Source of the DNA: a virus
IMG/VR virus record: IMGVR_UViG_3300020048_003650
Coordinates: 32,001-96,000 of that record
Reading direction: 5' to 3' (one strand)
Length of the DNA stretch: 64,000 nt
The notes beneath the pieces are model-generated. The model made no database searches and was not told where the DNA came from. It saw nothing but the letters and a program-made list of their open reading frames with translations. Shown here piece by piece: positions 25,146-52,391 of the stretch. The first letter of the stretch is position 1; the number at the start of each line of letters is the position of its first letter. A program made the position numbers and the translations under genes.

Positions 25146-26351
25146 ATGAGTAGCATATTACATTGTTCCTTCTGTGGAAAACATAAAAACGCCGTTAAAA
25201 AATTAATCGTCGGTGACAGTTCAGCAATCTGTAATGATTGTATTGAACTGTGCACGGATTTATTACTATCCGATACTGAATTAGATGTTCAGTCTGAATC
25301 TAAACGTGTTAGTTTATTTCCAGATGATATCAAACGTTTTTTAGACGAATACATTATCGGCCAAGATCGTGCCAAAAAAATAATAAGTGTCGCCGTTGCC
25401 AATCACTATAAAAGAATAAACAATAAAAGCGATAATATCACTGTTCAGAAAAGTAACGTGTTGATAGTTGGTCCAACCGGTAGCGGAAAAACTCTGCTTG
25501 CTAAAACTGTTGCCAAATATCTAGATGTTCCATTTGTAATAGCAGATGCAACTAGTTTAACCGAGGCTGGTTACGTTGGCGACGATGTAGAAAGTATGAT
25601 TACTAGATTGTTGGCGGCGGCCGGCGGCGATGTTGAACGTGCTGAACGAGGAATTGTTTTTATTGACGAAGTTGATAAAATTGCTAGAAAGAGTGAAAGT
25701 GCTAGTATTACTAGAGATGTCTCTGGCGAGGGTGTTCAACAGGCACTACTAAAATTAGTAGAAGGCACTGTGTGTAGAATATCACAAGACGGTAAAAGAA
25801 AAAATCCCAGTCAATCAATGATAGAAATAGATACTACTAATATCTTGTTTATCGCTGGTGGTGCATTTGTCGGATTAAGACAGTTAGTAGAAAATAGAGT
25901 CAGCGGAAATAGTATTGGATTTTCTGCATCAGTTGCAAATAAAGATAACAACATTGAGTATCTTGATCAATTGATGCCGGACGATCTTACTAAGTTCGGT
26001 ATGATACCAGAATTTACTGGCAGATTTACCAGCATTGTTAATATTACTGAACTAGATAAAGAGCAGTTAATACGAATCCTTACCGATGTTAAAAGTAACT
26101 TTATAGATCAATACACTTATCTATTTGGACTAGATGATATCGAATTACGTTTTGAAGCGGAGGCTATTGAAAAAATCGCAGAAAATTGTCTTAGATTAAA
26201 AACTGGCGCAAGGGGTCTACATAATGAAATGGAACGAGTTCTGATGCCTCATATGTATGAGATACAATCTTACATAAAAAACAACACTCGTCTGATAAAT
26301 ATTACCAGTGAACTAGTAGATAGTCCCACAGTATTACTGGAGGATAAATGA
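25146..26351 (+). CDS. clpX: ATP-dependent Clp protease ATPase
   Basis: CSFC/CNDC zinc finger, GPTGSGKT, FIDEVDK, RDVSGEGVQQALLK, IGF loop, GARGL. Confidence 0.97.
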   Translation: MSSILHCSFCGKHKNAVKKLIVGDSSAICNDCIELCTDLLLSDTELDVQSESKRVSLFPDDIKRFLDEYIIGQDRAKKIISVAVANHYKRINNKSDNITVQKSNVLIVGPTGSGKTLLAKTVAKYLDVPFVIADATSLTEAGYVGDDVESMITRLLAAAGGDVERAERGIVFIDEVDKIARKSESASITRDVSGEGVQQALLKLVEGTVCRISQDGKRKNPSQSMIEIDTTNILFIAGGAFVGLRQLVENRVSGNSIGFSASVANKDNNIEYLDQLMPDDLTKFGMIPEFTGRFTSIVNITELDKEQLIRILTDVKSNFIDQYTYLFGLDDIELRFEAEAIEKIAENCLRLKTGARGLHNEMERVLMPHMYEIQSYIKNNTRLINITSELVDSPTVLLEDK

Positions 26352-29874: not shown

Positions 29875-29936
29875 TATAATAGTTACTTAAAATGATGGCG
29901 ACGTCGGTCGCCATCAAACAATACAAGGGAATAAAA

Positions 29937-30242
29937 ATGTCTAAAGTAGAAGTTGGCACAAAAATTAAACCAAACACCAGAATTGCAGAACCTTCACTTT
30001 ATCGAGTATTTTACATTAATGATGATGTTACTACTATGAACTTTGTCGTGACTTCGTTAGTTCAATACTTTAATCACACAGAAGAATCTGCCATTGAAAT
30101 GACTGAAACTATTCATAACAATGGTAGCGCCGTTGTGGCTATTTTACCATATGAAATTGCCGAACAGAAAGGGGTAGAAGTTACATTGGAAGCCAGAAAA
30201 AATGGATATCCTCTACAAGTTAAAATTGAGCCAGAGTCCTAA
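29937..30242 (+). CDS. clpS: N-degron adaptor ClpS
   Basis: PSLYRV..INDDVTTMNFV, IH..G.AV, EIAE.K, YPL; likely start 29937. Confidence 0.9.
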   Translation: MSKVEVGTKIKPNTRIAEPSLYRVFYINDDVTTMNFVVTSLVQYFNHTEESAIEMTETIHNNGSAVVAILPYEIAEQKGVEVTLEARKNGYPLQVKIEPES

Positions 30243-30943: not shown

Positions 30944-31339
30944 TTATTTTGTTGGTGTCGGTGTTGGCTTTGGCTGTCTCCTTGGAGTAGGCTTTTTAAC
31001 ACTAGTAGAAGGTGAATTAGTTTTCGGTTCAACCGTTGTTTTTGGTTTTGGTCTGGCTCGTGGCTTTCGACCTCGAGTTTGTTTTCCACCAGTTTCAACT
31101 TTTAATTCCGGAACCTTATTTTCAACAACAGTTTCAGATTTAACCGTAGCCACTAGCGGCACGTTATCTGATTGACTGCTATTAGTTACTACTGGGGGCT
31201 CTACTTTGTACGGTGCTTCAAAATCCGCTGCTTTATTGGAATTATCAGAATCTTGCTTTTTGGATGCAAAAAACACATGATAAGCTGCCCATACCAATGC
31301 TACACCAATTAATACAAATACGACGACTTCTAAGTTCAT
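30944..31339 (-). CDS. Membrane-anchored protein with basic Pro/Lys tail
   Basis: N-terminal TM, APYKVEPP, K/P-rich C-terminus. Confidence 0.7.
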   Translation of the reverse strand: MNLEVVVFVLIGVALVWAAYHVFFASKKQDSDNSNKAADFEAPYKVEPPVVTNSSQSDNVPLVATVKSETVVENKVPELKVETGGKQTRGRKPRARPKPKTTVEPKTNSPSTSVKKPTPRRQPKPTPTPTK

Positions 31340-31437
31340 TAAAATTCTCCTAAAATTTTATTTATTATCCAATATTATTGACATAACACTTTTTATGATA
31401 TATAATACAAGAGTAAAATATTTATCAAGGATATTCA

Positions 31438-32052
31438 ATGACAAAAGATAATATTTCTGTTGAATCACAGGACGGTGAGCCTGGTGATTTTCTAAGAAAA
31501 TATGGAATTTATGTATTCATGGATGAGGTCACCAATGAAACCATCAAGCCAGTAATAGAATGGATACTACACGAGAATTATGTGGTAAAGAATAAAAAGA
31601 AAGAATTACTATTAATGATCTGTAGTGACGGCGGCGAATTAAGTAGCGCATTTGCACTAATTGATACAATGAGATCTAGTCATATTCCAATTAAAACAGT
31701 TGGACTTGGATTGATTGCCAGTAGTGGGTTGTTGATTTTTATCAGCGGCGCAAAGGGTAGAAGAATTTTAACTCCCAACACCAGTATCTTAAGTCATCAA
31801 TTTTCTGCAGGTTCAGAAGGAAAATCTCATGAACTATTTGCCACTGTTCGAGAGTTTGAATTAATTAACAAGCGTTTGATAGAACACTATCGTTTATGCA
31901 CAGGTCTAGATACTGATACTATCACGGCAAGATTATTGCCGGCACAAGATGTGTGGTTAGATCACGAATCTGCTCTGGAACTTAATATCTGCGATAGTGT
32001 CAGTGATTGGGATCCGCCTGCCAATAGAACCAGAAAACCCAAAATCTCTTGA
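31438..32052 (+). CDS. ClpP-like protease (divergent)
   Basis: ICSDGG, GLIASSG, ILSHQ, DVWL..AL..ICD. Confidence 0.85.
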   Translation: MTKDNISVESQDGEPGDFLRKYGIYVFMDEVTNETIKPVIEWILHENYVVKNKKKELLLMICSDGGELSSAFALIDTMRSSHIPIKTVGLGLIASSGLLIFISGAKGRRILTPNTSILSHQFSAGSEGKSHELFATVREFELINKRLIEHYRLCTGLDTDTITARLLPAQDVWLDHESALELNICDSVSDWDPPANRTRKPKIS

Positions 32053-32107
32053 TTTATATTAAAGATTGTAGTATAATCATTACTAACAACGTCAAAAGGA
32101 AAACATA

Positions 32108-32692
32108 ATGGCTTCATTAGTACCAATGGTAGTTGAGCAAACAAGTAAGGGCGAACGTGCCATGGACATCTATTCTCGTCTACTTAAAGATCGAGTAATT
32201 ATGTTAGACACGGATGTAAATGAAACCAGCGCCAGTTTAATTGTGGCACAGTTGCTATTTTTAGAATCAGAAGATTCAGATAGTGATATCAACTTCTATA
32301 TCAATAGTCCTGGTGGCTCGGTAATTGCCGGCTTGAGTATCTTAGATACCATGAGATTTATTAAGTGTGATGTGTCAACTATTGTCATGGGACAAGCTGC
32401 TAGTATGGGGTCATTGTTGGCAAGTAGCGGCACTCCTGGCAAGCGACTGATGTTGCCTAGCGCTAGACATATGATTCATCAAGTATCTAGTGGTACTCGT
32501 GGCACGGCGATTGATATGAAAATCGCACTTGAAGAAACACTTAAGCTGAATGAATATTTAACACGTATCTATGTAGAGAACACTGGCAAGACATATGAAC
32601 AACTTGAACAGGACATGAGTCGTGATAAGTTTATGTCAGCACAGGAGTCGGTTGAATACGGTCTAGTGGATCGAATTATCGTCAAGAGATAA
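32108..32692 (+). CDS. clpP: Clp protease proteolytic subunit
   Basis: [40 protein letters not shown]. Confidence 0.97.
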
Positions 32693-32704
32693 ATTAGCGT
32701 AGAA

Positions 32705-32983
32705 ATGAAATCACTAACCGTGTCCGAAAGATTAGAATTAAGTAAACTTATAGACGAGATAGCGCATAATTTATCTCAGATGAGGGACGAAAAACTAATT
32801 GTTAGTGAGCAGCAAAATGGAAACTACTATATCGTGTTCTTATCCAGTTACGATTTTTGGACTGAACATTATGATGAACTATGTGAATGGTCTCAGCAGT
32901 ATTCTGGAATTAAAGTTCTGGGAATGACGGTTCAGATAGATTCTGAGGAATTGTTAACAGTGTTTTTATTAAAATGGAATTAG
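32705..32983 (+). CDS. FxLxW-motif small protein
   Basis: Ends VFLLKWN. Confidence 0.7.
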   Translation: MKSLTVSERLELSKLIDEIAHNLSQMRDEKLIVSEQQNGNYYIVFLSSYDFWTEHYDELCEWSQQYSGIKVLGMTVQIDSEELLTVFLLKWN

Positions 32984-33246
32984 AATCTATAAAAACATAT
33001 TGTCATAAATTAATGAAAAATCATGGTTCATCAGACTCCTCCATTCCAATTAGATGGAATGATGAATTACAACAAGCAGGCTATTATTCGTGTAATCTGA
33101 GCGTGATAGATTCAACAACTAGATGGCAACAGGCTCATGCATGGTGTGATCTCAACATAGGAGAACAACATTATGTATGGACTGGTTCTAAATTTTGGTT
33201 CGATCGCTCGGACAATCTTGTTATGTTTTCATTAAAATGGGGTTAA
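32974..33246 (+). CDS. FxLxW-motif small protein
   Basis: AWCD; ends MFSLKWG. Confidence 0.7.
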   Translation: MELESIKTYCHKLMKNHGSSDSSIPIRWNDELQQAGYYSCNLSVIDSTTRWQQAHAWCDLNIGEQHYVWTGSKFWFDRSDNLVMFSLKWG

Positions 33247-33247
33247 C

Positions 33248-33523
33248 ATGAACGACAATGAACTAGATGGTTACTATCAAGACCGAGATTCCAGATTAAA
33301 TACAATATTGGCAGCAGATAGTGAGTTATGGATAAAAATAACCCGTAGCAAGGATGATTTTGCAAAATCATTGGCAGAAGGCGATGTATGGTCAATGGAG
33401 AAATTTTCTAGATGGCTAATAGATAATTATGGAATCAAATTATCATTTAGCGATGGCGTAATTGATTTGAAAGTAGAGATCATAGACGAACATAAATTAA
33501 CTATCTTTTTATTAAAATACTAA
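33248..33523 (+). CDS. FxLxW-motif small protein
   Basis: Ends IFLLKY. Confidence 0.7.
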   Translation: MNDNELDGYYQDRDSRLNTILAADSELWIKITRSKDDFAKSLAEGDVWSMEKFSRWLIDNYGIKLSFSDGVIDLKVEIIDEHKLTIFLLKY

Positions 33524-33524
33524 T

Positions 33525-33752
33525 ATGGAACTTCCGGTAATATATTTTAGCGGTGACACAGATAGTAAAATTATTGTTGTTGATGACAGCATAGATAGTT
33601 ACGTAATATTGAATGGCACACTATTATCTAGTTTGGAACTTGCGGAGATAAAAAAATGGTGTGTCAACACTGAGAGTATTTACTACGCATGTGGAATAGT
33701 TAAATTTGATAATCCTATCAGATTATATGAATTTGTGTTGACTTGGGGATAA
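33525..33752 (+). CDS. FxLxW-motif small protein
   Basis: KWC; ends EFVLTWG. Confidence 0.7.
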   Translation: MELPVIYFSGDTDSKIIVVDDSIDSYVILNGTLLSSLELAEIKKWCVNTESIYYACGIVKFDNPIRLYEFVLTWG

Positions 33753-33754
33753 CT

Positions 33755-34090
33755 ATGGCACTTCAACAACACATGGATGAACAACTGCAAATCAGGGACT
33801 TAGCATTACGATTGTATCGAGCCTCTGATAGAATTGACACTGGTCCCGGGTCTAATAAAACAGTAATAGATATTATTGAAGTTGAGTGGCTCAATATAGA
33901 ACATTGGGGGAAAACAATTGCTGACTGGTTCAAACAAGAAAATGAAAAATTCGAGTGGGCATTAAGGCATTCGAACAGACCTATAGAAATTATATCATCG
34001 ATTGATGCTGCGGAACTTGTAAAAAAATATGCTTTAATTGCATATCTGTCAGATAGATCACTAACCGAATGGGTATTACGATTTAAATAA
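33755..34090 (+). CDS. FxLxW-motif-like small protein
   Basis: Ends EWVLRFK. Confidence 0.65.
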   Translation: MALQQHMDEQLQIRDLALRLYRASDRIDTGPGSNKTVIDIIEVEWLNIEHWGKTIADWFKQENEKFEWALRHSNRPIEIISSIDAAELVKKYALIAYLSDRSLTEWVLRFK

Positions 34091-34156
34091 TATTTGACAA
34101 TAAATCACCAGTATGATACAATATGTAATATTAAAAATGGCAACATTGGAGAAGAT

Positions 34157-34897
34157 ATGCGTGTAAAAATTGGAAAATATGTTAACTTTTTTGGGCCGTT
34201 TCAACTGGCAGAATCACTTTGTTTTTGGGCACGTGATGTCAACGACGAATATGGATTAAAGAGAAAGCCCGATTGGGTTCATAATTTTGGGGAATTTCTG
34301 GCCTATGGAAAAATTTCATCGGAGCCTGCAGCGGATGAGACACGCCCACTTCTCAATAATGATGATGAAGAAACATGGCTCTATCGTTTATTAATGTGGA
34401 TTCATAATCATCGTCAGCGCAAAATAAAAATTCATATTGATCGCTGGGATACCTGGAGTATGGATGATACACTAGCTAAAATTATTCTGCCTATGCTTCG
34501 TCAATTGAAAGAATCCAAACATGGCGCACCGTGTGTTGACTCGAAAGATGTTCCGGAAAATCTACGCGCCACACGTTCAGAGGCGGCAGCATTTCGCCGT
34601 AATGGAACAACCGATGATAAGTTTTTTGAACGTTGGGATTGGGTCATATCAGAAATGATTTTTGCATTTGAACATATTGTAGATGACTCGTGGGAAGATC
34701 AATATCGTCAGGGCGAAATTGACTGGCTTAGTAAACCAGTCGAATGGGATGATAAAGGAAAACCAACCATGTATCAGATGGTAGACGGACCCAATCATAC
34801 ATATGAATGTGACTATGATGCTATCCGTGACGTTCATAAGCGAATTGATCGTGGACTACTATTTTTTGGCAAATACTACCGACACCTGTGGGATTAA
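34157..34897 (+). CDS. Phage hypothetical protein
   Basis: DTWSMD.TLA.II.PML, GAP.VD, FGKYY..LWD; promoter TTGACA(34094)-N17-TACAAT. Confidence 0.75.
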   Translation: MRVKIGKYVNFFGPFQLAESLCFWARDVNDEYGLKRKPDWVHNFGEFLAYGKISSEPAADETRPLLNNDDEETWLYRLLMWIHNHRQRKIKIHIDRWDTWSMDDTLAKIILPMLRQLKESKHGAPCVDSKDVPENLRATRSEAAAFRRNGTTDDKFFERWDWVISEMIFAFEHIVDDSWEDQYRQGEIDWLSKPVEWDDKGKPTMYQMVDGPNHTYECDYDAIRDVHKRIDRGLLFFGKYYRHLWD

Positions 34898-34908
34898 TAG
34901 GATATCTA

Positions 34909-35379
34909 ATGAAACAGACATTTTACAGACGAGTAGGACGTAAATATGTTCCTGTGATGGAATATGATAGCGAAGTATCTAATAGTTTTACTGAAGGCTA
35001 TCATCTTATCGTATGCAGACCAGGCAGTGTTCTCACACTATACGATATTGTTCCGGAACATGCGCCACTAATTGCCGCGGCACAAATTGCACGTGATGTA
35101 ATGTCAGAAACTATGAGAAAGGAATTAGAACTTAAGCCATCTAATAAGCCAATTACACCAGAACAACGTGCAGCATGGGATAATTTGGCACAAACATTTG
35201 GAGATAATTTATCTACACTGGAATCTAATAGTGTGTACAACGTTGTTAATGCAGGATTAGATTCACTGATCGGCGAGGCATCTAAATTATTGACCAACGA
35301 AAGTGTAAAATTAGCATACGAGAATTTTTTATTATTATCAGCACTAACCAAGGAGCAAAAAAATGACACACGAAGTTAA
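34909..35379 (+). CDS. Phage hypothetical protein
   Basis: FYRRVGRKYVPV.EYD; AGGA SD. Confidence 0.7.
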   Translation: MKQTFYRRVGRKYVPVMEYDSEVSNSFTEGYHLIVCRPGSVLTLYDIVPEHAPLIAAAQIARDVMSETMRKELELKPSNKPITPEQRAAWDNLAQTFGDNLSTLESNSVYNVVNAGLDSLIGEASKLLTNESVKLAYENFLLLSALTKEQKNDTRS

Positions 35380-35446
35380 AATCGGAATCGTATTAGCAGT
35401 AATAGTGTATGTAGTATTACCGGCTATGTACTGGCTATCACAGTAA
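35363..35446 (+). CDS. 27-aa membrane peptide
   Basis: AAGGAG SD; MTHEVKIGIVLAVIVYVVLPAMYWLSQ. Confidence 0.5.
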   Translation: MTHEVKIGIVLAVIVYVVLPAMYWLSQ

Positions 35447-35468
35447 TGGAATTCGTATTGCCTTAATC

Positions 35469-35690
35469 ATGAAATATCATGACATAATGGAATCATTGAT
35501 GATGAACTATCTATTCGAGCCGTGGGATGCTCAAACACGACTTCAATTGGAATATGATTTTAGATCACAGTGTCCTGGTCCATATATTATTACATGGACA
35601 AAACGATGGGAAAGTGACGGTATTCCGGTTTATCTATTTCAATTCGAAGATCCAGTTGAGGAAACAATGTGGCTGTTGAGGTGGTCATGA
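35469..35690 (+). CDS. FxLxW-motif small protein
   Basis: Ends MWLLRWS. Confidence 0.7.
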   Translation: MKYHDIMESLMMNYLFEPWDAQTRLQLEYDFRSQCPGPYIITWTKRWESDGIPVYLFQFEDPVEETMWLLRWS

Positions 35691-35887
35691 AAATAGAATC
35701 TACAACTTATCATGGCTGGACCAATCAACAGAGCGTATATCGAGTTAAAACTTACGATGATTTTATAGAAATCTCTAAATGGATGCAACTCAATGGGGTA
35801 GACAACGCACTATTGTCGTCTGGATTGAATGAATACATATTTGAAGTTCGTGATAATCATGAATGGTTTATTCTGAAATGGCTATAA
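35687..35887 (+). CDS. FxLxW-motif small protein
   Basis: ATGA overlap; ends WFILKWL. Confidence 0.7.
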   Translation: MKIESTTYHGWTNQQSVYRVKTYDDFIEISKWMQLNGVDNALLSSGLNEYIFEVRDNHEWFILKWL

Positions 35888-36054
35888 TATATCGAGCAAA
35901 GATTCCAGAAGCATGGGCAAGAGTAAAATGGTGCGAACAACAGTTTGGTCCCACAGTTTGGTGGAACTCAACGGCTCGCTGGTATCGGGATGGCGGGTAT
36001 ATATGCTTTCGTGATGAATCGGATTACGTGTTATACTTGCTAAGATGGGCATGA
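35878..36054 (+). CDS. FxLxW-motif small protein
   Basis: KWCEQQFG; ends LYLLRWA. Confidence 0.7.
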   Translation: MAIIYRAKIPEAWARVKWCEQQFGPTVWWNSTARWYRDGGYICFRDESDYVLYLLRWA

Positions 36055-36257
36055 TTATTCAATTACATAAAGAGTTTAGGATTTGGAGAGAAATGGTTCC
36101 GTGGTTGGTAGAACATTGTGGTCCAGTCTTGAATAGTAAACCTGTTGTATATTGGAGAGGACGGGAGTGGGAGTTGAGTTACGAATCGTCAAATTATTGG
36201 CAAGTGAATATAAATGACGAGAAAATGGCTACATTATTTGTATTGAGATGGTATTGA
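36045..36257 (+). CDS. FxLxW-motif small protein
   Basis: WLVEHCG; ends LFVLRWY. Confidence 0.7.
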   Translation: MGMIIQLHKEFRIWREMVPWLVEHCGPVLNSKPVVYWRGREWELSYESSNYWQVNINDEKMATLFVLRWY

Positions 36258-36258
36258 G

Positions 36259-36540
36259 ATGGGCATGACTCAATACGAACATTGGAAACGAGATCACGAT
36301 AGAACAATGGAAGAAATGGATATTCTAGCGGAATGGAAATACAAAAGATTTGTAATCGTCGATCCGGAATTACATGACTATTCTAATCATGTAATATTAC
36401 TATATGACTATTTGTATTGGTCAGATAATATTCTTGAGTTAGTTGAATGGTGTCATAATAACAACTGTAAGTTAAAGGGAATGACCATAGAAATACCAAA
36501 TGATTCTTTGCTGACTATGTTTATCTTGAGGTGGACATGA
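36259..36540 (+). CDS. FxLxW-motif small protein
   Basis: EWC...GMTIEI; ends MFILRWT; resembles 32705. Confidence 0.7.
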   Translation: MGMTQYEHWKRDHDRTMEEMDILAEWKYKRFVIVDPELHDYSNHVILLYDYLYWSDNILELVEWCHNNNCKLKGMTIEIPNDSLLTMFILRWT

Positions 36541-36737
36541 TTAAATTACCAGTAGAACCCTATTGGGTTAACGCCGCTGATTGGTGGCTGAAGAATCGCA
36601 ACAACAATAACCATGAATTCAATCTATGGTTACGTGAACAGGGTGTGCACGTTGTCAAGCGAGATAAATTTTATCCCTGGATTGAATTTCATGATTCAGT
36701 TCATGCGGTAATTTTTCAATTAAAATGGAGTGATTAG
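36537..36737 (+). CDS. FxLxW-motif small protein
   Basis: NA..WW...F..WLREQG; ends IFQLKWSD. Confidence 0.7.
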   Translation: MIKLPVEPYWVNAADWWLKNRNNNNHEFNLWLREQGVHVVKRDKFYPWIEFHDSVHAVIFQLKWSD

Positions 36738-37114
36738 TGACAACTGAACACTTCCTGTTATTAGGGTTCACACTGTTTGCCGTTAAACATTACATATGTG
36801 ATTTTGTATTGCAAACAAATGATATGATTCGGTCTAAAGGACACTGGGGTGAATGGCGGGGTATTGTACACAGCGTATATCATGGAATGGGAACTATGGT
36901 AGTCATTGGCATAATGGGATTTGGAACGGTGTCGTGCATACTCATGGGATTGCTTGACACGGTAGTACACTATCATGTTGACTGGGCAAAACAAAAACTT
37001 AATGATGCGTTAAAATACACTGTGGATAATCCTAAATTCTGGAATTTATTAGGCCTAGACCAACTGCTACACACGCTAACTTATGTCGGAATATTACTGA
37101 CGGTCACATCGTGA
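36737..37114 (+). CDS. DUF3307-like membrane protein
   Basis: KHYICDFVLQT, HS..H, HYHVDWAK, GLDQLLH. Confidence 0.75.
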   Translation: MTTEHFLLLGFTLFAVKHYICDFVLQTNDMIRSKGHWGEWRGIVHSVYHGMGTMVVIGIMGFGTVSCILMGLLDTVVHYHVDWAKQKLNDALKYTVDNPKFWNLLGLDQLLHTLTYVGILLTVTS

Positions 37115-37434
37115 TTGAAATTGATGTAGATTTAACTGTAGATACTGATTCTGAGGTGTATCAGAATGCCATTGCCTACTGGGCAAATCTCGATGAGAAC
37201 AGGAGCAAATGGAATAAAAAATGGCAGTCGGCGGTCACTGCCGCTAACGACTATAAAAACCTTGTGGTTGAACCATTTCATCAGTGGCTAGCATCTCAGG
37301 GAGCAACCGTGTCCAATAATAAAAAACCCACTGACCTCTACATGGTTGATAGCTATAACATAGCACAGGGAATAGATGTCCTGTTATTTGACACAGAACA
37401 GAATAAATTGATTTTTTTACTAAGGTGGAGTTAG
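37111..37434 (+). CDS. FxLxW-motif small protein
   Basis: NA..YW...F..WLASQG; ends IFLLRWS. Confidence 0.7.
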   Translation: MIEIDVDLTVDTDSEVYQNAIAYWANLDENRSKWNKKWQSAVTAANDYKNLVVEPFHQWLASQGATVSNNKKPTDLYMVDSYNIAQGIDVLLFDTEQNKLIFLLRWS

Positions 37435-37505
37435 TGTTGTATCTTTACAACACTATTTTTACTAAGAAAAATTTAGTTGACAATAAATCAGAGGTGTGAT
37501 ATACT
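37432..37505 (+). promoter_or_regulatory. Stem-loop plus early promoter (same element family)
   Basis: tagtgttgta-tctt-tacaacacta; TTGACA(37477)-N17-TATACT. Confidence 0.85.
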
Positions 37506-37558
37506 GTAGTTATAGTAGATAGAAATTGTTTTATCTACGAATTTAAAGGCGTTACGAC

Positions 37559-37795
37559 ATGAAATTTGAAACTAAACTGCCAACTCTTAAATCAATGAAA
37601 GAAGATGGGTGGAAACTCACCCATATTAATGGTGTTAAATGTTTGAAACTAGTAAGTGACGATTGTACTTTTGTAGGCGAATGGAATAAGTCTGGATATA
37701 TGTCGCCTACCAACATGTTATCGATTATATCAAAATTAGGGCAGCCTAAACGTATTCATACGATGAATAATTCAGTTACTACCCTAGAATACTAA
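37559..37795 (+). CDS. Hypothetical protein
   Basis: Follows promoter. Confidence 0.6.
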   Translation: MKFETKLPTLKSMKEDGWKLTHINGVKCLKLVSDDCTFVGEWNKSGYMSPTNMLSIISKLGQPKRIHTMNNSVTTLEY

Positions 37796-37878
37796 ACAAT
37801 ATTTAACTTGACAATTAATACCACTTGTGATATACTGTAGTTATAGTAGATAAACACTTAAACACACAGGGATACAAA

Positions 37879-38400
37879 ATGACTTCAAAACTTACCTCAA
37901 CAGACCCACGTATCGTTGATTTATTTAAATCGTATCATCGCCGAGTTAAATCTCGTCCACAGTTATTTAATAATAGTAACTCAATGATTACCGTTGGATT
38001 ATCGGCCGATTTGTTAGATTACGCTAATGCCGCGGCTGGTCATAGTGGCTTTGCTGCTAGTGCACGCCCAGTTGGTATTCGAGTGACCGTGAGTGATAGT
38101 ACTAAATCTCTTAAAGATATCTTTAGTTCGTGTGAATCACTGGCCGAGTTTATTAACTCAAGTGAGTGCAATGCCGCGGAGTATATTGCTAGAATTAGAG
38201 ATCGTGATTCTAAAGTATCTAATAAACCAGGCAAGAACGCAATTACAATCGATATCCGTCCAATCAAAGATGCTTTCTACGATTTAGGGTACAACTTTGA
38301 TCTAATTCAAAAACTCAAGAATACGTACGGCACTGACACCGTTAAACGTGACTGGGACAATCTTCAGGTTACAGAATTTCAACTTCGCTACGCTGTCTAA
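37879..38400 (+). CDS. Hypothetical protein at start of MTase island
   Basis: Promoter TTGACA(37808)-N17-TATACT. Confidence 0.65.
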   Translation: MTSKLTSTDPRIVDLFKSYHRRVKSRPQLFNNSNSMITVGLSADLLDYANAAAGHSGFAASARPVGIRVTVSDSTKSLKDIFSSCESLAEFINSSECNAAEYIARIRDRDSKVSNKPGKNAITIDIRPIKDAFYDLGYNFDLIQKLKNTYGTDTVKRDWDNLQVTEFQLRYAV

Positions 38401-38413
38401 CACAGGTACTGTC

Positions 38414-39370
38414 GTGATAAATAATTCGGTCGTCAACGTACTTGACACACTCAAAAAAGAAGATTACAATATTCTAATAGTTAATGCCCTTAACGGAGCG
38501 TTTCCTATTAGAGTTCGTAAAAAATATCCAAAAGCTAGAATTATCTGCGCCGAGATATTTCCATACTTCAAATCTCATCTACTCAAGTTGGGATTTGAAG
38601 TCATTGATTTTTCAATATTGACCGAAGATATGATAAAACGATTTAATGTGACTTTAGGTAATCCACCGTTTCAGGCAATGAAGTCTGATGGAGAGCGCAG
38701 TGATCAGGCTAGTAACCTGTGGAGTAAATTTTGGGTCAAGTCATTGGATATTACCAATGACAATGGAATTGTTGCTTTGGTTAGTCCAACTAGTTGGATT
38801 TCTCCTAGTTCAGAGATACGAGGCAAATGGTCTCGTAACGGCAAATCTAGATTGTGGGAGGTATTCGATCAATACGGTAGCTACGCTAATGTGACAGATG
38901 TAAAAAAACATTTTGATGGTGTGGGTTCTACATTTGGATATGTGATCGTAGATAAATCTAAAGATACTGGATTGATATTTTCAGACGGCGTGTCAACTAA
39001 ATTAGGATTTCGCGCTCATGGAGAATATGACCGAGTTGAATTGGAACTAGATCGAATAGAGAATCTTGATAAACATTTTAAGATTAATCAAGTTAATTCC
39101 CCCGGTCTAAGAGTTAGCTTTCCGTTAACCAGAACATTAACCGTTAACAGCGTAGAGATATTAACAGGACAATCGTCGCCGACTACCGGCTCTGATAAAG
39201 ATGGTTTGTATCTGTACATTCACGTGAATAATCTCACTGAAGCGGAATTGGTAAAAAACCGAATTATTGATTGTTTGGATATTTTAAATAAACTCTGCAA
39301 GTACAGTGGATTTATTAATATCCAAACAGTAAAAATGATTAAATTCTTCGATAGTGTTGTAAAAAGTTGA
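38414..39370 (+). CDS. Amino-MTase catalytic/TRD protein with degenerate SAM-binding motif (start uncertain)
   Basis: YNILIVNALNG, IICAE, LGNPPF, LWSKF, GIVALVSP.SW, HF.GVGS. Confidence 0.7.
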   Translation: MINNSVVNVLDTLKKEDYNILIVNALNGAFPIRVRKKYPKARIICAEIFPYFKSHLLKLGFEVIDFSILTEDMIKRFNVTLGNPPFQAMKSDGERSDQASNLWSKFWVKSLDITNDNGIVALVSPTSWISPSSEIRGKWSRNGKSRLWEVFDQYGSYANVTDVKKHFDGVGSTFGYVIVDKSKDTGLIFSDGVSTKLGFRAHGEYDRVELELDRIENLDKHFKINQVNSPGLRVSFPLTRTLTVNSVEILTGQSSPTTGSDKDGLYLYIHVNNLTEAELVKNRIIDCLDILNKLCKYSGFINIQTVKMIKFFDSVVKS

Positions 39371-39426
39371 CAATAAATCCCACTTGTGATATACTGTAGT
39401 TATTCTAACACATAGAGAATAGTTAA

Positions 39427-41907
39427 ATGAGTTTAAAGATTATTGGTGACAGAGCCAAGATACACTGGTTGAGTTCAACTAAATCAGTAACCTTGACCAA
39501 AGATCAGGGCGTACTCTATATCACTCAAGATGGTAAACTTGGTCAGGCAACCGTAGAGAGTTATGCCGGTCTGACTCCGGCCGAGGCATTCGTGCGTCGC
39601 TATAATGGCATGAAGTCTGCCATGAATGGTAACTTTATTGCCGATGATCTCGTGGTGATTGATAAGACGTATGGTGAGAATCATGATTATGATGATGGTG
39701 TTCGTCTACTGATTAATAAATTAAACAAGATCAATCTGATTGATTTTCGAGCTAACGTTCTATCTCAACAGACCGAAAATTCAAACAGCGAGGCACTAAT
39801 AGATTACAAGTCATCGTCGCATAGAGACGATGTTATCAATTGTATCAAACAATATCTAGGAATTAACACATACTACAATACTCACACACCATTTCAACCA
39901 CGTTACGGCCAACAGTGGGCCGTCGACGGTATTGTTAGCGGTCTCGCTCAGTATGATCGTGTGTTGTTTGCTGGCTACACGGGCGTTGGCAAGAGCAAGA
40001 TTGCCTTAGAGGCAATTCATCAGTACTATCCTGGTGGCGCTGTGATTCTTATTACCACACCTATTACCGAGACCATTACGTCATTCAAGGACGCCGTCGA
40101 TGATACAAGATTTGGCAATTCTCCAACCAGAGAGACTGTGATATATTCGACCGATAATATGCCGAGTGTCAAGAATATCAAAAACTCTGTTGCCAATGGC
40201 AATATTGTTATTGTTATTGCCACAGTACAGGATATTCGCTATCAAGACAGTTCTTCAATTACCACACCGAATAAAAAACTTCGTACAAAATACACGTCAC
40301 TGTGTCAGATAGTTGATCTATGGATTCGTGATGAGTATCATAAAGAGTACGGCGGAACAGTTACTCAGGAGGTATTCAAACATATCAAGACCAGTAAAAA
40401 ACTAGACTTGACCGCCACGCCGTATTCGGTCATTGATGAATATGATAGTGAACAGGTAATCTCACGTACACTATTGTGGGCAGTGGCAAATCGTGCTAAT
40501 ACCGGCGTGCCAAATTTTGGTATTGACTGTTTAGCCGGCTTGTTGCCAAAAAACATGAGTAAGTGGGGCGACCTATTCAGCGAGAGCGAGGGCTTTCACA
40601 GTCATAAATTGGTCGAACAATGCAGTTCAACAGGCGAGTTCGTAAACTTCGGAATCATCGAGGATATGATCGAGCGTTCATACTGTATGAATACCGTGCC
40701 TCGTAAAAAGAACGTGTTCAGCATCGGTAATGATGCTGAGTTGAGTCTTGTCGCCCGTGAAGTTGGATTGTGGATTATGCCAGAGGGAGCAAATGGCATT
40801 TCGGCATCAGACTACATTGTGTCACTGGCAGACAAATTGAATCGTTGTGGCACAATTAATAAACACGTTAAAGTTACAACGGCATATGAGATTGACGGTC
40901 TGCGTAAACAGTTAACTGTGGAAGAATATGTTAATTCAATCAAAGACCATCGTGTCTTGATTATCCTTACTCACGGTAAGTTCAAAACCGGAACTGATAT
41001 ACCCTGTTTAGGTCACATTGTATTACTAGACAAGATTAGTAATATAGCGGAGTTTGAACAAACTGTTGGTAGAATCATGCGTGTCTATCCAACTAAGGAC
41101 TACACTAAAATGTATGTGTACAGTCCAGGTGTCACCGTCAAGGAAGTAGTTACTGAGTTAGCCCATCAGAATACTAAATTGTCCACGGACGAGACCCGTA
41201 GTGAATTGGATTTCTTAAGTTGTTTTCCAATTAGCGAGTATGATGGTCTGTCTATCCAGTCTCTCGATCCAGTTACACTGTTTGAAGAGTTTAAAGAAAA
41301 ACTTAGACTCAAGAGTGCAATTGCCAACTTTAAATTGCCCAGTGAAATTCGTTCAATGATTGAGAATAATTCAGATATCGCGGACGAATTATCTTTGCTG
41401 TCTAAGAAAAATGGTAAGCGCGATGGCCTAAGTTCGGACCTTACAGAAGATAATAACTCTGAGGTTTTTGGCAACCGTAATAAAAAAAATGGCAACACGA
41501 AAAAATCAACACCAGTCAACCAAGATCAAAAAACTATCAATAATATCATTAACGGACTGGAAGAAATTTGGATAAACGTTCCGCCATTTGCCATTATTAC
41601 AGATAGTGACGACATCGTTGATGTGTTACAATGTGAACCGCTAATTGAAATGTTCGGTCATGATCATATCTATTCAGTCGTCGATGTGATGAATAATTAT
41701 CCAGACTTTAAGAAACGACTGCAACTTAGATTGAACGTGTTCTTGACTGCATTCCGTGATCTACCGCCGGAACAGTGTTACGATTCAGTATTTAAAAACT
41801 GTGATAAAAAAATGAAACAGGGATTGGTATTCACCCCGTTTAGTTTAATTGATGAATTGTTGGATAAATTGCCTATGGACAGTTACAACGCTAAATATGG
41901 ATACTAA
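39427..41907 (+). CDS. SF2 helicase / restriction-like subunit
   Basis: GYTGVGKS, DEYH, LTATP, TGTDIP, QTVGRIMR; C-terminal GLVFTP; promoter TTGACA(39367)-N17-TATACT. Confidence 0.8.
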   Translation: MSLKIIGDRAKIHWLSSTKSVTLTKDQGVLYITQDGKLGQATVESYAGLTPAEAFVRRYNGMKSAMNGNFIADDLVVIDKTYGENHDYDDGVRLLINKLNKINLIDFRANVLSQQTENSNSEALIDYKSSSHRDDVINCIKQYLGINTYYNTHTPFQPRYGQQWAVDGIVSGLAQYDRVLFAGYTGVGKSKIALEAIHQYYPGGAVILITTPITETITSFKDAVDDTRFGNSPTRETVIYSTDNMPSVKNIKNSVANGNIVIVIATVQDIRYQDSSSITTPNKKLRTKYTSLCQIVDLWIRDEYHKEYGGTVTQEVFKHIKTSKKLDLTATPYSVIDEYDSEQVISRTLLWAVANRANTGVPNFGIDCLAGLLPKNMSKWGDLFSESEGFHSHKLVEQCSSTGEFVNFGIIEDMIERSYCMNTVPRKKNVFSIGNDAELSLVAREVGLWIMPEGANGISASDYIVSLADKLNRCGTINKHVKVTTAYEIDGLRKQLTVEEYVNSIKDHRVLIILTHGKFKTGTDIPCLGHIVLLDKISNIAEFEQTVGRIMRVYPTKDYTKMYVYSPGVTVKEVVTELAHQNTKLSTDETRSELDFLSCFPISEYDGLSIQSLDPVTLFEEFKEKLRLKSAIANFKLPSEIRSMIENNSDIADELSLLSKKNGKRDGLSSDLTEDNNSEVFGNRNKKNGNTKKSTPVNQDQKTINNIINGLEEIWINVPPFAIITDSDDIVDVLQCEPLIEMFGHDHIYSVVDVMNNYPDFKKRLQLRLNVFLTAFRDLPPEQCYDSVFKNCDKKMKQGLVFTPFSLIDELLDKLPMDSYNAKYGY

Positions 41908-51758: not shown

Positions 51759-52219
51759 AAGACAAATTTGTTAATTACTATATGAAATTGGCAGACTTAA
51801 CCAGTGATCTAAGTTCAGCAATAAAACTTAAAGTGGGCAGCGTTATCGTTCGTGATAATCAGATTCTAGCAACAGGATACAACGGCACTCCAAGTGGCTG
51901 GGATAATAGATGTGAAGACGAAATTGTGGATAGTTACGCAGGATTCGAAGGTGCTATCCATGGGGTCAAATTAAAAACCAGACCCGAGGTAATTCATAGT
52001 GAGTCAAACGCTATCTTAAAGGTTGCCAGGAGCACAGAATCCAGCGTCAATGCTACTATGTTCTGTACACACGCACCGTGTATTGATTGTGCAAAATTAA
52101 TATATCAAAGCGGAATAAATACACTGTATTACAGAAATACCTATAGAAGTCAAGAGGGTCTAGAATTCTTGAAAAAGAGCGGGGTCAATGTCCACAGATA
52201 CAGTCAAGAGAACAGTTGA
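51755..52219 (+). CDS. dCMP deaminase
   Basis: KVG, GYNG, HSESNA, PCIDC. Confidence 0.93.
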   Translation: MKDKFVNYYMKLADLTSDLSSAIKLKVGSVIVRDNQILATGYNGTPSGWDNRCEDEIVDSYAGFEGAIHGVKLKTRPEVIHSESNAILKVARSTESSVNATMFCTHAPCIDCAKLIYQSGINTLYYRNTYRSQEGLEFLKKSGVNVHRYSQENS

Positions 52220-52391
52220 TCTGCCATTTAAGTACGGAAAGATACAATCAGTTTTAGACTGGTGTGATGAAAATTGTTTAGGAAACTGGAAACTTGGTGC
52301 TGCTAGTTGGGAAGTGTCAAATGAACCGTCGTGGACTTTTGATTTTGAAAATGAAACTGATTATGTTTTGTTTATGTTAACATGGAAATGA
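52188..52391 (+). CDS. FxLxW-motif small protein (isolated copy)
   Basis: DWCDENC.G.W; ends LFMLTWK. Confidence 0.7.
   Translation: MSTDTVKRTVDLPFKYGKIQSVLDWCDENCLGNWKLGAASWEVSNEPSWTFDFENETDYVLFMLTWK

Follow-up and report, generated by a model that had tools for sequence, protein, structure and literature searches.

What does a phage gain from a dozen small, divergent genes whose products all end alike? The question is raised by a run of short open reading frames (ORFs) at 32705-37434 of a 64,000-nucleotide stretch (hereafter the window) of the IMG/VR virus record IMGVR_UViG_3300020048_003650, where a first-pass annotation made from the letters noticed a shared C-terminal F-x-L-[KR]-W motif in 12 predicted proteins encoded directly behind clpP. 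The source is a single linear record of 104,535 bases, of which the window is bases 32001-96000; CheckV puts its completeness at ~30%, and it is therefore a fragment of an uncultured jumbo phage of ~350 kb; the array lies in what is probably an early-transcribed, hyperplastic part of its genome. We find that the array is the local instance of a very large, nameless family, here called 'LRW-tail' mini-proteins, and that its members are homologues by sequence, not merely sharers of a motif. As to function, we give about one chance in two to the reading that such arrays supply, early in infection, a set of small accessory binders used in host takeover or conflict.

The 13 C-termini quoted in that annotation, 12 from the array and one from a solitary gene further downstream, are all present in the ORF list (F1-F13, Table 1), and the array does follow directly on clpP, whose stop lies at 32692. 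Nine ORFs, all on the + strand within 32705-37434, end in L[KR]W with 0-2 residues behind it, where composition leads one to expect 0.3; the window has 336 ORFs of 40 aa or more and the entire contig 662. Furthermore, leave-one-out hidden Markov models (HMMs) recovered 11 of the 13 copies at E<0.01, ranked above every non-family ORF, and a broader family HMM, built mostly from outside sequences, recovered 12 of the 13 at E<2e-5. The count of 12 holds firmly for 11 array genes, F13 being a further firm paralogue, and only marginally for F5, which scores E 0.037 with the family HMM in hmmsearch and, in hhalign, E 0.001 at a probability of 21%. Identity between paralogues reaches ~30% at most, with 39-44% solely across short alignments of 25-28 residues. 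Two subfamilies had been proposed by eye: the pairing of F1 with F10 stood (BLASTP E 1e-12), and that of F11 with F12 is weakly supported and not significant (E 0.12).

The family extends far beyond this contig. Run against 1.84 billion cluster representatives, a profile of the C-terminal 52 residues picked up 200 proteins at E<=1e-3, nearly all of 50-110 aa and with the match reaching the last residue, and a second search gave 483 proteins, all unnamed or 'hypothetical' except two with evidently automatic JGI labels. When copies were counted with an HMM across large phages, 74 IMG/VR loci (16-20 kb each, with 8-10 kb flanks) yielded 609, of which 515 were unique, every copy on one strand. Their median length is 84 aa, with a median of 0 residues after the domain; loci hold a median of 8.5 copies and a maximum of 27 at the stricter per-domain threshold or 29 at the per-sequence threshold (locus L040), and complete genomes carry 10-24 each by a conservative profile. 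Members have a conserved ~50-residue domain at the extreme C-terminus, ending in h-F-x-L-[KR]-W plus 0-3 residues (consensus ..W..ih.WC.e.fG..hY.W.G..FwFe.e.DA.lF.LRWs), and the strict ending L[KR]W plus 0-3 residues is found in 390 of the 515 unique sequences. Relatives of F2 occur in 36 of the first 38 IMG/VR loci, and F7 and F11 share 50% and 60% identity with copies in L007 and L013, respectively. In the locus scan, which covered IMG/VR virus records, the family is phage-only. Two outside proteins, P0116 (141 aa) and P0036 (105 aa), hold two LRW domains in one frame and are probably fused array neighbours.

The initial impression that no characterised family is involved was borne out in Pfam, PHROG, PDB sequence and PDB fold searches. 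Pfam and PHROG gave no match for the window copies and none for 75 members apart from one borderline DUF7122 (E 0.009), a PDB profile search found nothing below E 0.07, and tblastn of F1, F2 and the outside member P0233 against 50,697 GenBank phage records returned no match. Only uncharacterised phage proteins were found in BFVD and only unnamed viral clusters in the ESM Atlas; a nucleotide search with 31000-38000 gave matches limited to clpP and a short piece of orf247; and the literature that we searched holds no description of the family. A cultured phage, the Agrobacterium jumbo phage Atu_ph07, encodes at least three divergent, scattered members annotated as hypothetical, with family HMM E values of 7e-7 to 7e-5 and LRF/LRY-type tails; these open the family to experiment in a laboratory system.

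What the copies share beyond an ending is best seen in two AlphaFold2 models, of F2 and F10, which were built from separate, non-overlapping subfamily alignments and share one topology. Both predict the same ~50-residue beta-alpha-beta-beta-alpha core: in F2 (predicted local distance difference test, pLDDT, 82) a strand at 38-41, a helix at 48-61, strands at 67-69 and 73-76 and a helix at 79-89, and in F10 (pLDDT 84.5 for the whole protein and, by ten-residue blocks, 90-98 from residue 31 onwards) a strand at 44-48, a helix at 51-67, strands at 71-73 and 76-79 and a helix at 82-92. The W-x5-W[CL] helix and the acidic turn preceding the last helix, both first picked out by eye, are visible in alignments A2, A3 and A6 as well as in both models. 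Besides that turn, the conserved positions are nearly all hydrophobic (W..WC in helix 1, h-x-F in strand 3, F-x-L-[KR]-W in helix 2), and the remainder is variable, including 0-60 N-terminal residues. The terminal F-x-L-[KR]-W is modelled within the last helix (block pLDDT 86-97) and leaves no free tail; we read the invariant W, W, F, F, L and W as core-type hydrophobics, and the motif as part of the predicted fold core and not a docking tail. The first-pass proposal of an expanded family with a constant small fold and a highly divergent remainder is supported by the HMMs and by these two predicted models; its suggestion of a docking helix is not supported, the motif being modelled with high confidence inside the last helix of a folded core. 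Both models match the same generic ferredoxin-like chains. Indeed, the fold search returned generic two-layer alpha+beta sandwiches (ACT, RRM, DCoH, designed ferredoxins) at Z 4-6.2, the tool's background range, the best being 3rrk_A (Z 5.6, root-mean-square deviation 2.7, 63 residues aligned) and 7np8_A (Z 6.2, 2.3, 59 aligned), both within that range, and Foldseek against the PDB found nothing below E 0.4 for either model.

When would these proteins be made? From the perfect or near-perfect sigma70 promoters at 31378 and 34094 and the strong terminator at 37432, we infer two early operons, one running from the two ClpP genes through F1-F5 and the other comprising orf247, orf163, F6-F11, the DUF3307 gene and F12. 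Near-identical extended early promoters recur four times in and behind the array, at 34094-34135, 37477-37520, 37808-37850 and 39367-39410 (TTGACAATAAATC...TGTGATATACTGTAGTTAT). None of the sequencing runs containing this stretch is recorded as an RNA run.

Comparison with close relatives suggests how the array evolves. In the syntenic loci L022 and L025 the order IscA, Hsp20, ClpS, ClpP-like, ClpP is kept, and the flanking proteins are mostly 46-89% identical to those of the window (orf247, 36%); the family copies are 25-39% identical and number 4-6, versus 12-13 on the contig. The positional orthologues of F13 in both loci stand at 33-34% identity, versus 54-55% for the neighbouring deaminase. 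At the strain level, a 3516-nt contig from run X2, a metagenome of another study, matches 34909-36054 and 36063-37202 at 95-97% and carries 1038 extra letters between 36054 and 36063, exactly after the F8 stop. The X2 strain, which is near-identical to that of the window, has another 934 letters inserted between its two ClpP genes (window 32020-32039), and its divergence from the window is 0.3-1.7% around the Clp genes and F1-F5 and 3-5% over F6-F12. A variant of F4 carries an in-frame 6-nt insertion near codon 20. The median ratio of nonsynonymous to synonymous substitution rates (dN/dS) for ungapped orthologue pairs between loci is 0.16 for the family (n=59) and 0.12 for other ORFs (n=209), which places the individual orthologues under purifying selection. 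Of 15 listed strain single-nucleotide polymorphisms in F genes, 10 are synonymous and five nonsynonymous, four of the latter preceding the C-terminal domain (in F2 and F4) and the fifth being I84V in F12. Taken together, the identity, strain and dN/dS data indicate that the copies are old and individually maintained, and that gain, loss or exchange affects whole genes. A further candidate joint in run X2, between promoters (from 34123 to 37468), has a short side of only 30 promoter-like letters.

In the reading that we prefer, the conserved hydrophobic residues would form the core of the domain, making the proteins small, stable scaffolds, and the variable surfaces and N-terminal extensions would each bind a different target early in infection. 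Jointly, the copies would be an accessory repertoire serving host takeover, counter-defence or conflict between phages, and would not be partners of the neighbouring Clp protease. Lineage-specific expansions of small domains, such as the SUKH/US22-type immunity arrays or the ankyrin or BTB proteins of poxviruses and giant viruses, are usually read as binder repertoires. By analogy, the array may resemble them in its many divergent tandem copies with a conserved core and variable surfaces. Unlike them, it shows no sequence or fold relationship to those domains (best VIA Z 5.6-6.2 to generic ferredoxin-like domains; Foldseek E >0.4), its domain is much smaller (~50 aa), and its C-terminal codons double as translation signals. 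The alternative raised at first sight, a diversified anti-defence set, would fit both the early promoters and the turnover of cassettes suggested by the sequence.

Several points weigh against a repertoire of early binders. What the family members do we infer indirectly, and the putative early timing has promoter consensus as its sole basis. The isoelectric points (pI) of the copies span 4.2 to 8.7, so a single physico-chemical mode such as DNA mimicry does not apply; a uniform DNA-mimic role was rejected on this range. A dN/dS of 0.16 gives no sign of pervasive positive selection and thus does not demonstrate a fast arms race. Lastly, ClpP is present in four of the five array-bearing records of at least 90% completeness, which would suit a distant functional link to Clp.

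Jumbo phages of aquatic and wetland samples give 10-24 or more genes per genome to one fold that has no name in databases; in the window, LRW genes take up several kilobases of DNA that is probably transcribed early. Large, confined to phages and kept by purifying selection even as strains reshuffle it, the family probably harbours new activities in host takeover or counter-defence, and the LRW domain, at 50-60 residues, may be a compact natural scaffold for binders.

Could the targets instead be the phage's own? Copies might bind abundant phage proteins, such as capsid or replisome components, as chaperones, assembly timers or regulators. This is suggested by array members of other phages, some of which carry a copy of the capsid protein's most conserved segment (T4 gp23 residues 86-131) and others a stretch similar to the Walker-A start of the DnaB-like helicase that the phage itself encodes, and it agrees with selection that is purifying and not diversifying. 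However, the array lies in an early variable region and not among structural or replication genes, relatives do not conserve copy sets, and the N-terminal parts of the 13 copies resemble no other protein of the contig or of the loci. We consider such helpers unlikely, though worth bearing in mind.

The chimeras themselves deserve description. About one quarter of the best database matches have 105-145 residues and an N-terminus that matches positions 3-60 of the Pfam Gp23 profile; in P0163, residues 3-49 are 49% identical to T4 gp23 residues 86-131 (E 6e-11). The capsid-like part of P0163, some 50 residues long, has matches to capsid genes in 1918 phage records, and in none of these does the match take in the LRW domain. 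Such chimeras sit within arrays (e.g., L040, with 29 copies), and no capsid gene was found within 10 kb of them. In a second class (L040:13630-14109, P0152, P0177, P0233) the N-terminus carries a Walker-A piece (GRQTGKS or GTQPGKS) weakly similar to the DnaB_C start of a ~480-aa replicative helicase, the gene for which lies a few kb off in several of these loci. Neither class occurs on the window contig, which has no GVQPM-type capsid segment and no PF07068 match. These chimeras show that the LRW domain, in sequence at least, tolerates foreign N-terminal segments, and perhaps it presents them. The gp23 segment copied in the chimeras may be the one to which Gol maps. Gol, the 29-residue, EF-Tu-binding trigger of the Lit abortive-infection protease, is reported to be located in the first quarter of gp23 and to be that protein's most conserved region (review, PMC3014915). 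One may imagine the LRW domain as a miniature carrier of short 'bait' peptides early in infection, with arrays, including that of the window, as decoy or inhibitor repertoires against host sensors of conserved phage proteins or against rival phages; we regard this version as a long shot.

It is also conceivable that the copies do little for the phage, and that their self-contained joint, with stop, Shine-Dalgarno sequence and start within 10-15 nt, together with the repeated early promoters, makes them selfish or near-neutral cassettes that insert harmlessly and recombine easily. Close relatives differ in copy number and order, one strain has a 1-kb insertion exactly at a joint, P0116 and P0036 look like two-domain fusions, and near-identical early promoters repeat around the array, as in the promoter-early stem-loop (PeSL) modules of T4-type phages (PMC2839356). 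Yet the hydrophobic core is kept across phages between copies less than 30% identical, no copy has an incomplete domain, F13 and other solitary copies hold their position in relatives, and the orthologue dN/dS of 0.16 lies near that of neighbouring genes. We judge this explanation distinctly unlikely.

The region does resemble PeSL cassettes. In T4-type phages, too, hyperplastic early regions (Arbiol et al. 2010, PMC2839356) contain runs of small, non-essential ORFs of unassigned function behind strong sigma70-like early promoters, with a stem-loop terminator paired with a promoter, as found here at 37432-37505; shared too are near-identical promoter copies (here at 34094, 37477, 37808 and 39367) and a gene content that varies among close relatives. 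The T4-type ORFs, however, are for the most part ORFans with no relation to each other, and what recombines there is the regulatory cassette, whereas the array here consists of paralogues of one fold. Furthermore, unlike in PeSL regions, most array joints are without a promoter, and the one mapped strain difference within the array falls at a coding joint, 36054, and not at a promoter.

The position behind clpP led the first-pass annotation to suggest Clp adaptors, each copy delivering a different host protein to the phage ClpXP or ClpS through its constant C-terminal helix. In the window several features favour it: the array begins 12 nt after clpP in what would be the same operon, genes for a ClpX-like AAA+ protein, for ClpS and for a second ClpP-like protein are present on the contig, and the gene order is preserved in L022 and L025. 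ClpP is found somewhere in most of the complete array-bearing genomes (four of five), and Atu_ph07 is annotated with a Clp ATP-binding subunit. A precedent is SspB, whose C-terminal LRVVK peptide serves to dock it to ClpX. Across the 74 loci, however, arrays have no conserved genomic association with clpP, clpX or clpS: ClpP lies inside the fetched 8-10 kb flank in six and ClpS in five. Among 22 large array-bearing records, 11 contain ClpP; in complete genomes it is 20-190 kb away from the arrays; and three records with 17-18 copies (G012, G014, G015) show no ClpP within the 54-77% of the genome that they cover. Such co-occurrence as there is among related phages is non-independent evidence. 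Like adaptors of the ClpS/SspB type, the copies are small proteins encoded beside Clp genes; unlike them, they have a Clp neighbourhood that is not conserved and an ending modelled in a confident folded helix, not a flexible tail, and no window copy reaches PF02617 or a different adaptor family at E<=1, nor does one match Pfam elsewhere. A general link between the array and the neighbouring Clp protease is not supported, and we hold the adaptor idea to be improbable.

Finally, the ending serves a second purpose at the level of DNA. At the F1/F2, F7/F8 and F8/F9 joints the start ATG combines the final base of the K/R codon with the TG of the tryptophan codon, giving a 10-nt overlap; two window joints read GAGGTGG followed by an ATGA overlap and two read TGGGG-n-TAA-n-ATG. 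At F6/F7 (GAGGTGGTCATGA) F7 starts from an ATGA overlap, with the R-W codons of F6 as the Shine-Dalgarno sequence. Tandem arrays on one strand, linked by overlaps, are found in the window and throughout the 74 loci, where 438 adjacent pairs overlap by 4 nt in 47% of cases, by 1 nt in 10% and by 10 nt, with ATG inside the [KR]-W codons, in 6%. The terminal codons carry the next gene's start or Shine-Dalgarno sequence, and the copies are therefore chained by translational coupling. That the shared ending is a by-product of such overlapping signals (A-TGG, AGGTGG) on unrelated ORFs has next to no chance. In its favour, the [KR]-W-x codons at seven window junctions contain either an ATG or a G-rich stretch like a Shine-Dalgarno sequence, and 63% of adjacent pairs family-wide overlap by 1, 4 or 10 nt. 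The leave-one-out HMMs and both structure models nevertheless refute it, with homology spanning ~50 residues and a shared predicted fold. The first-pass annotation had named an overlap signal as the finding that would undo its family; as a full explanation this fails, because F12 and F13 retain the motif, within its 50-residue domain, with no gene following, so the terminal codons cannot be an overlap signal only.

The joints resemble ordinary ATGA/TAATG stop-start coupling in operons in their 4-nt and 1-nt overlaps and in a Shine-Dalgarno sequence within the upstream coding end. Unlike ordinary coupling, the signal is written in invariant residues of the fold (R-W as AGG TGG; K-W as AAA TGG, containing ATG), and therefore protein and signal constrain each other in every copy. 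This triple use of the last codons, for fold, stop context and next start, fuses coding and expression signals, and the genes would act as plug-in cassettes.

Table 1. Coordinates of the array, its signals and the other features discussed; positions refer to the window unless another record or locus is named.
Feature	Position	Strand	Length and C-terminus	Evidence and remarks
ClpX-like AAA+ gene	25146-26351			upstream of array
ClpS	29892-30242			true ClpS of the phage; gene separate from array copies
Early promoter	31378..31406	+		sigma70-type, TTGACA-17-TATAAT; 12/12 consensus match; heads ClpP-like, ClpP, F1-F5
Divergent ClpP-like gene	31438-32052	+		Pfam PF00574 E 2e-25; context, non-family
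Canonical ClpP	32108-32692	+		Pfam PF00574 E 2e-73; context, non-family
F1	32705..32983	+	92 aa, VFLLKWN	leave-one-out HMM E 2.7e-9; subfamily 'VILSD..YW..DEL.EWC..GMTV'
F2	32974..33246	+	90 aa, MFSLKWG	family HMM E 1.9e-20; subfamily 'AGYY..W..H.WC..G..HY.WTG..FWF'
F3	33248..33523	+	91 aa, IFLLKY	leave-one-out E 0.0056; family HMM E 6.8e-8
F4	33525..33752	+	75 aa, EFVLTWG	leave-one-out E 0.0065; family HMM E 9.7e-9
F5	33755..34090	+	111 aa, EWVLRFK	marginal member; leave-one-out E 12
Second early promoter	34094..34122	+		TTGACA-17-TACAAT, TG extension; one of four near-identical copies
orf247	34157-34897	+		non-family; no Pfam match
orf163	34888-35379	+		non-family; no Pfam match
F6	35469..35690	+	73 aa, MWLLRWS	leave-one-out E 2.7e-4
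F7	35687..35887	+	66 aa, WFILKWL	leave-one-out E 0.25; broad family HMM E 1.4e-6
F8	35878..36054	+	58 aa, LYLLRWA	leave-one-out E 1.4e-4; minimal core-only member
F9	36045..36257	+	70 aa, LFVLRWY	leave-one-out E 9.4e-4
F10	36259..36540	+	93 aa, MFILRWT	family HMM E 6e-22; F1 subfamily
F11	36537..36737	+	66 aa, IFQLKWSD	leave-one-out E 0.002
DUF3307 membrane protein	36737..37114	+		Pfam PF11750 E 1e-10; non-family, inside array
F12	37111..37434	+	107 aa, IFLLRWS	leave-one-out E 0.009; last gene of operon
Intrinsic terminator	37432-37455	+		10-bp stem; after F12
Next early promoter	37477-37505	+		after terminator; PeSL-like unit 37432..37505
F13	52188..52391	+	67 aa, LFMLTWK	leave-one-out E 1.6e-7; solitary, after dCMP deaminase gene
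Atu_ph07 members AUZ95034.1, AUZ95037.1, AUZ95077.1	MF403008.1: 198223-198555, 199522-199830, 239836-240018			
Capsid-segment chimeras	L040:9968-10357, L039:5778-6170, L041:225-617, L043:9968-10363, L057:9956-10363			protein P0163

Three unrelated genes break the array: orf247, orf163 and the DUF3307 gene. Homologues of orf247 adjoin arrays in 12 of the 74 loci, and a DUF3307 gene also stands beside arrays in L022, L025, L004, L008 and L056. The product of orf247 ends in ...YYRHLWD, and the GTG start of the next gene sits within its CTG TGG codons. As hidden members, orf247, orf163, orf78 and orf173 (ending EFQLRYAV) were tested and rejected, orf247 and orf163 scoring hhalign probabilities below 1% against the family.

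Nearly all genes lie on the + strand. Upstream of the array, IscA and Hsp20 genes stand next to the Clp genes, and the phage encodes a full Clp set of ClpX-like AAA+ protein, ClpS, divergent ClpP-like protein and canonical ClpP; two ClpP paralogues are also present in the relatives G005, G006, G008 and G021. Directly downstream of the array come an Eco57I-type methylase-like gene (38348-39370) and then a gene for an 826-aa ResIII/Helicase_C protein (39427-41907), each with its own copy of the early promoter.

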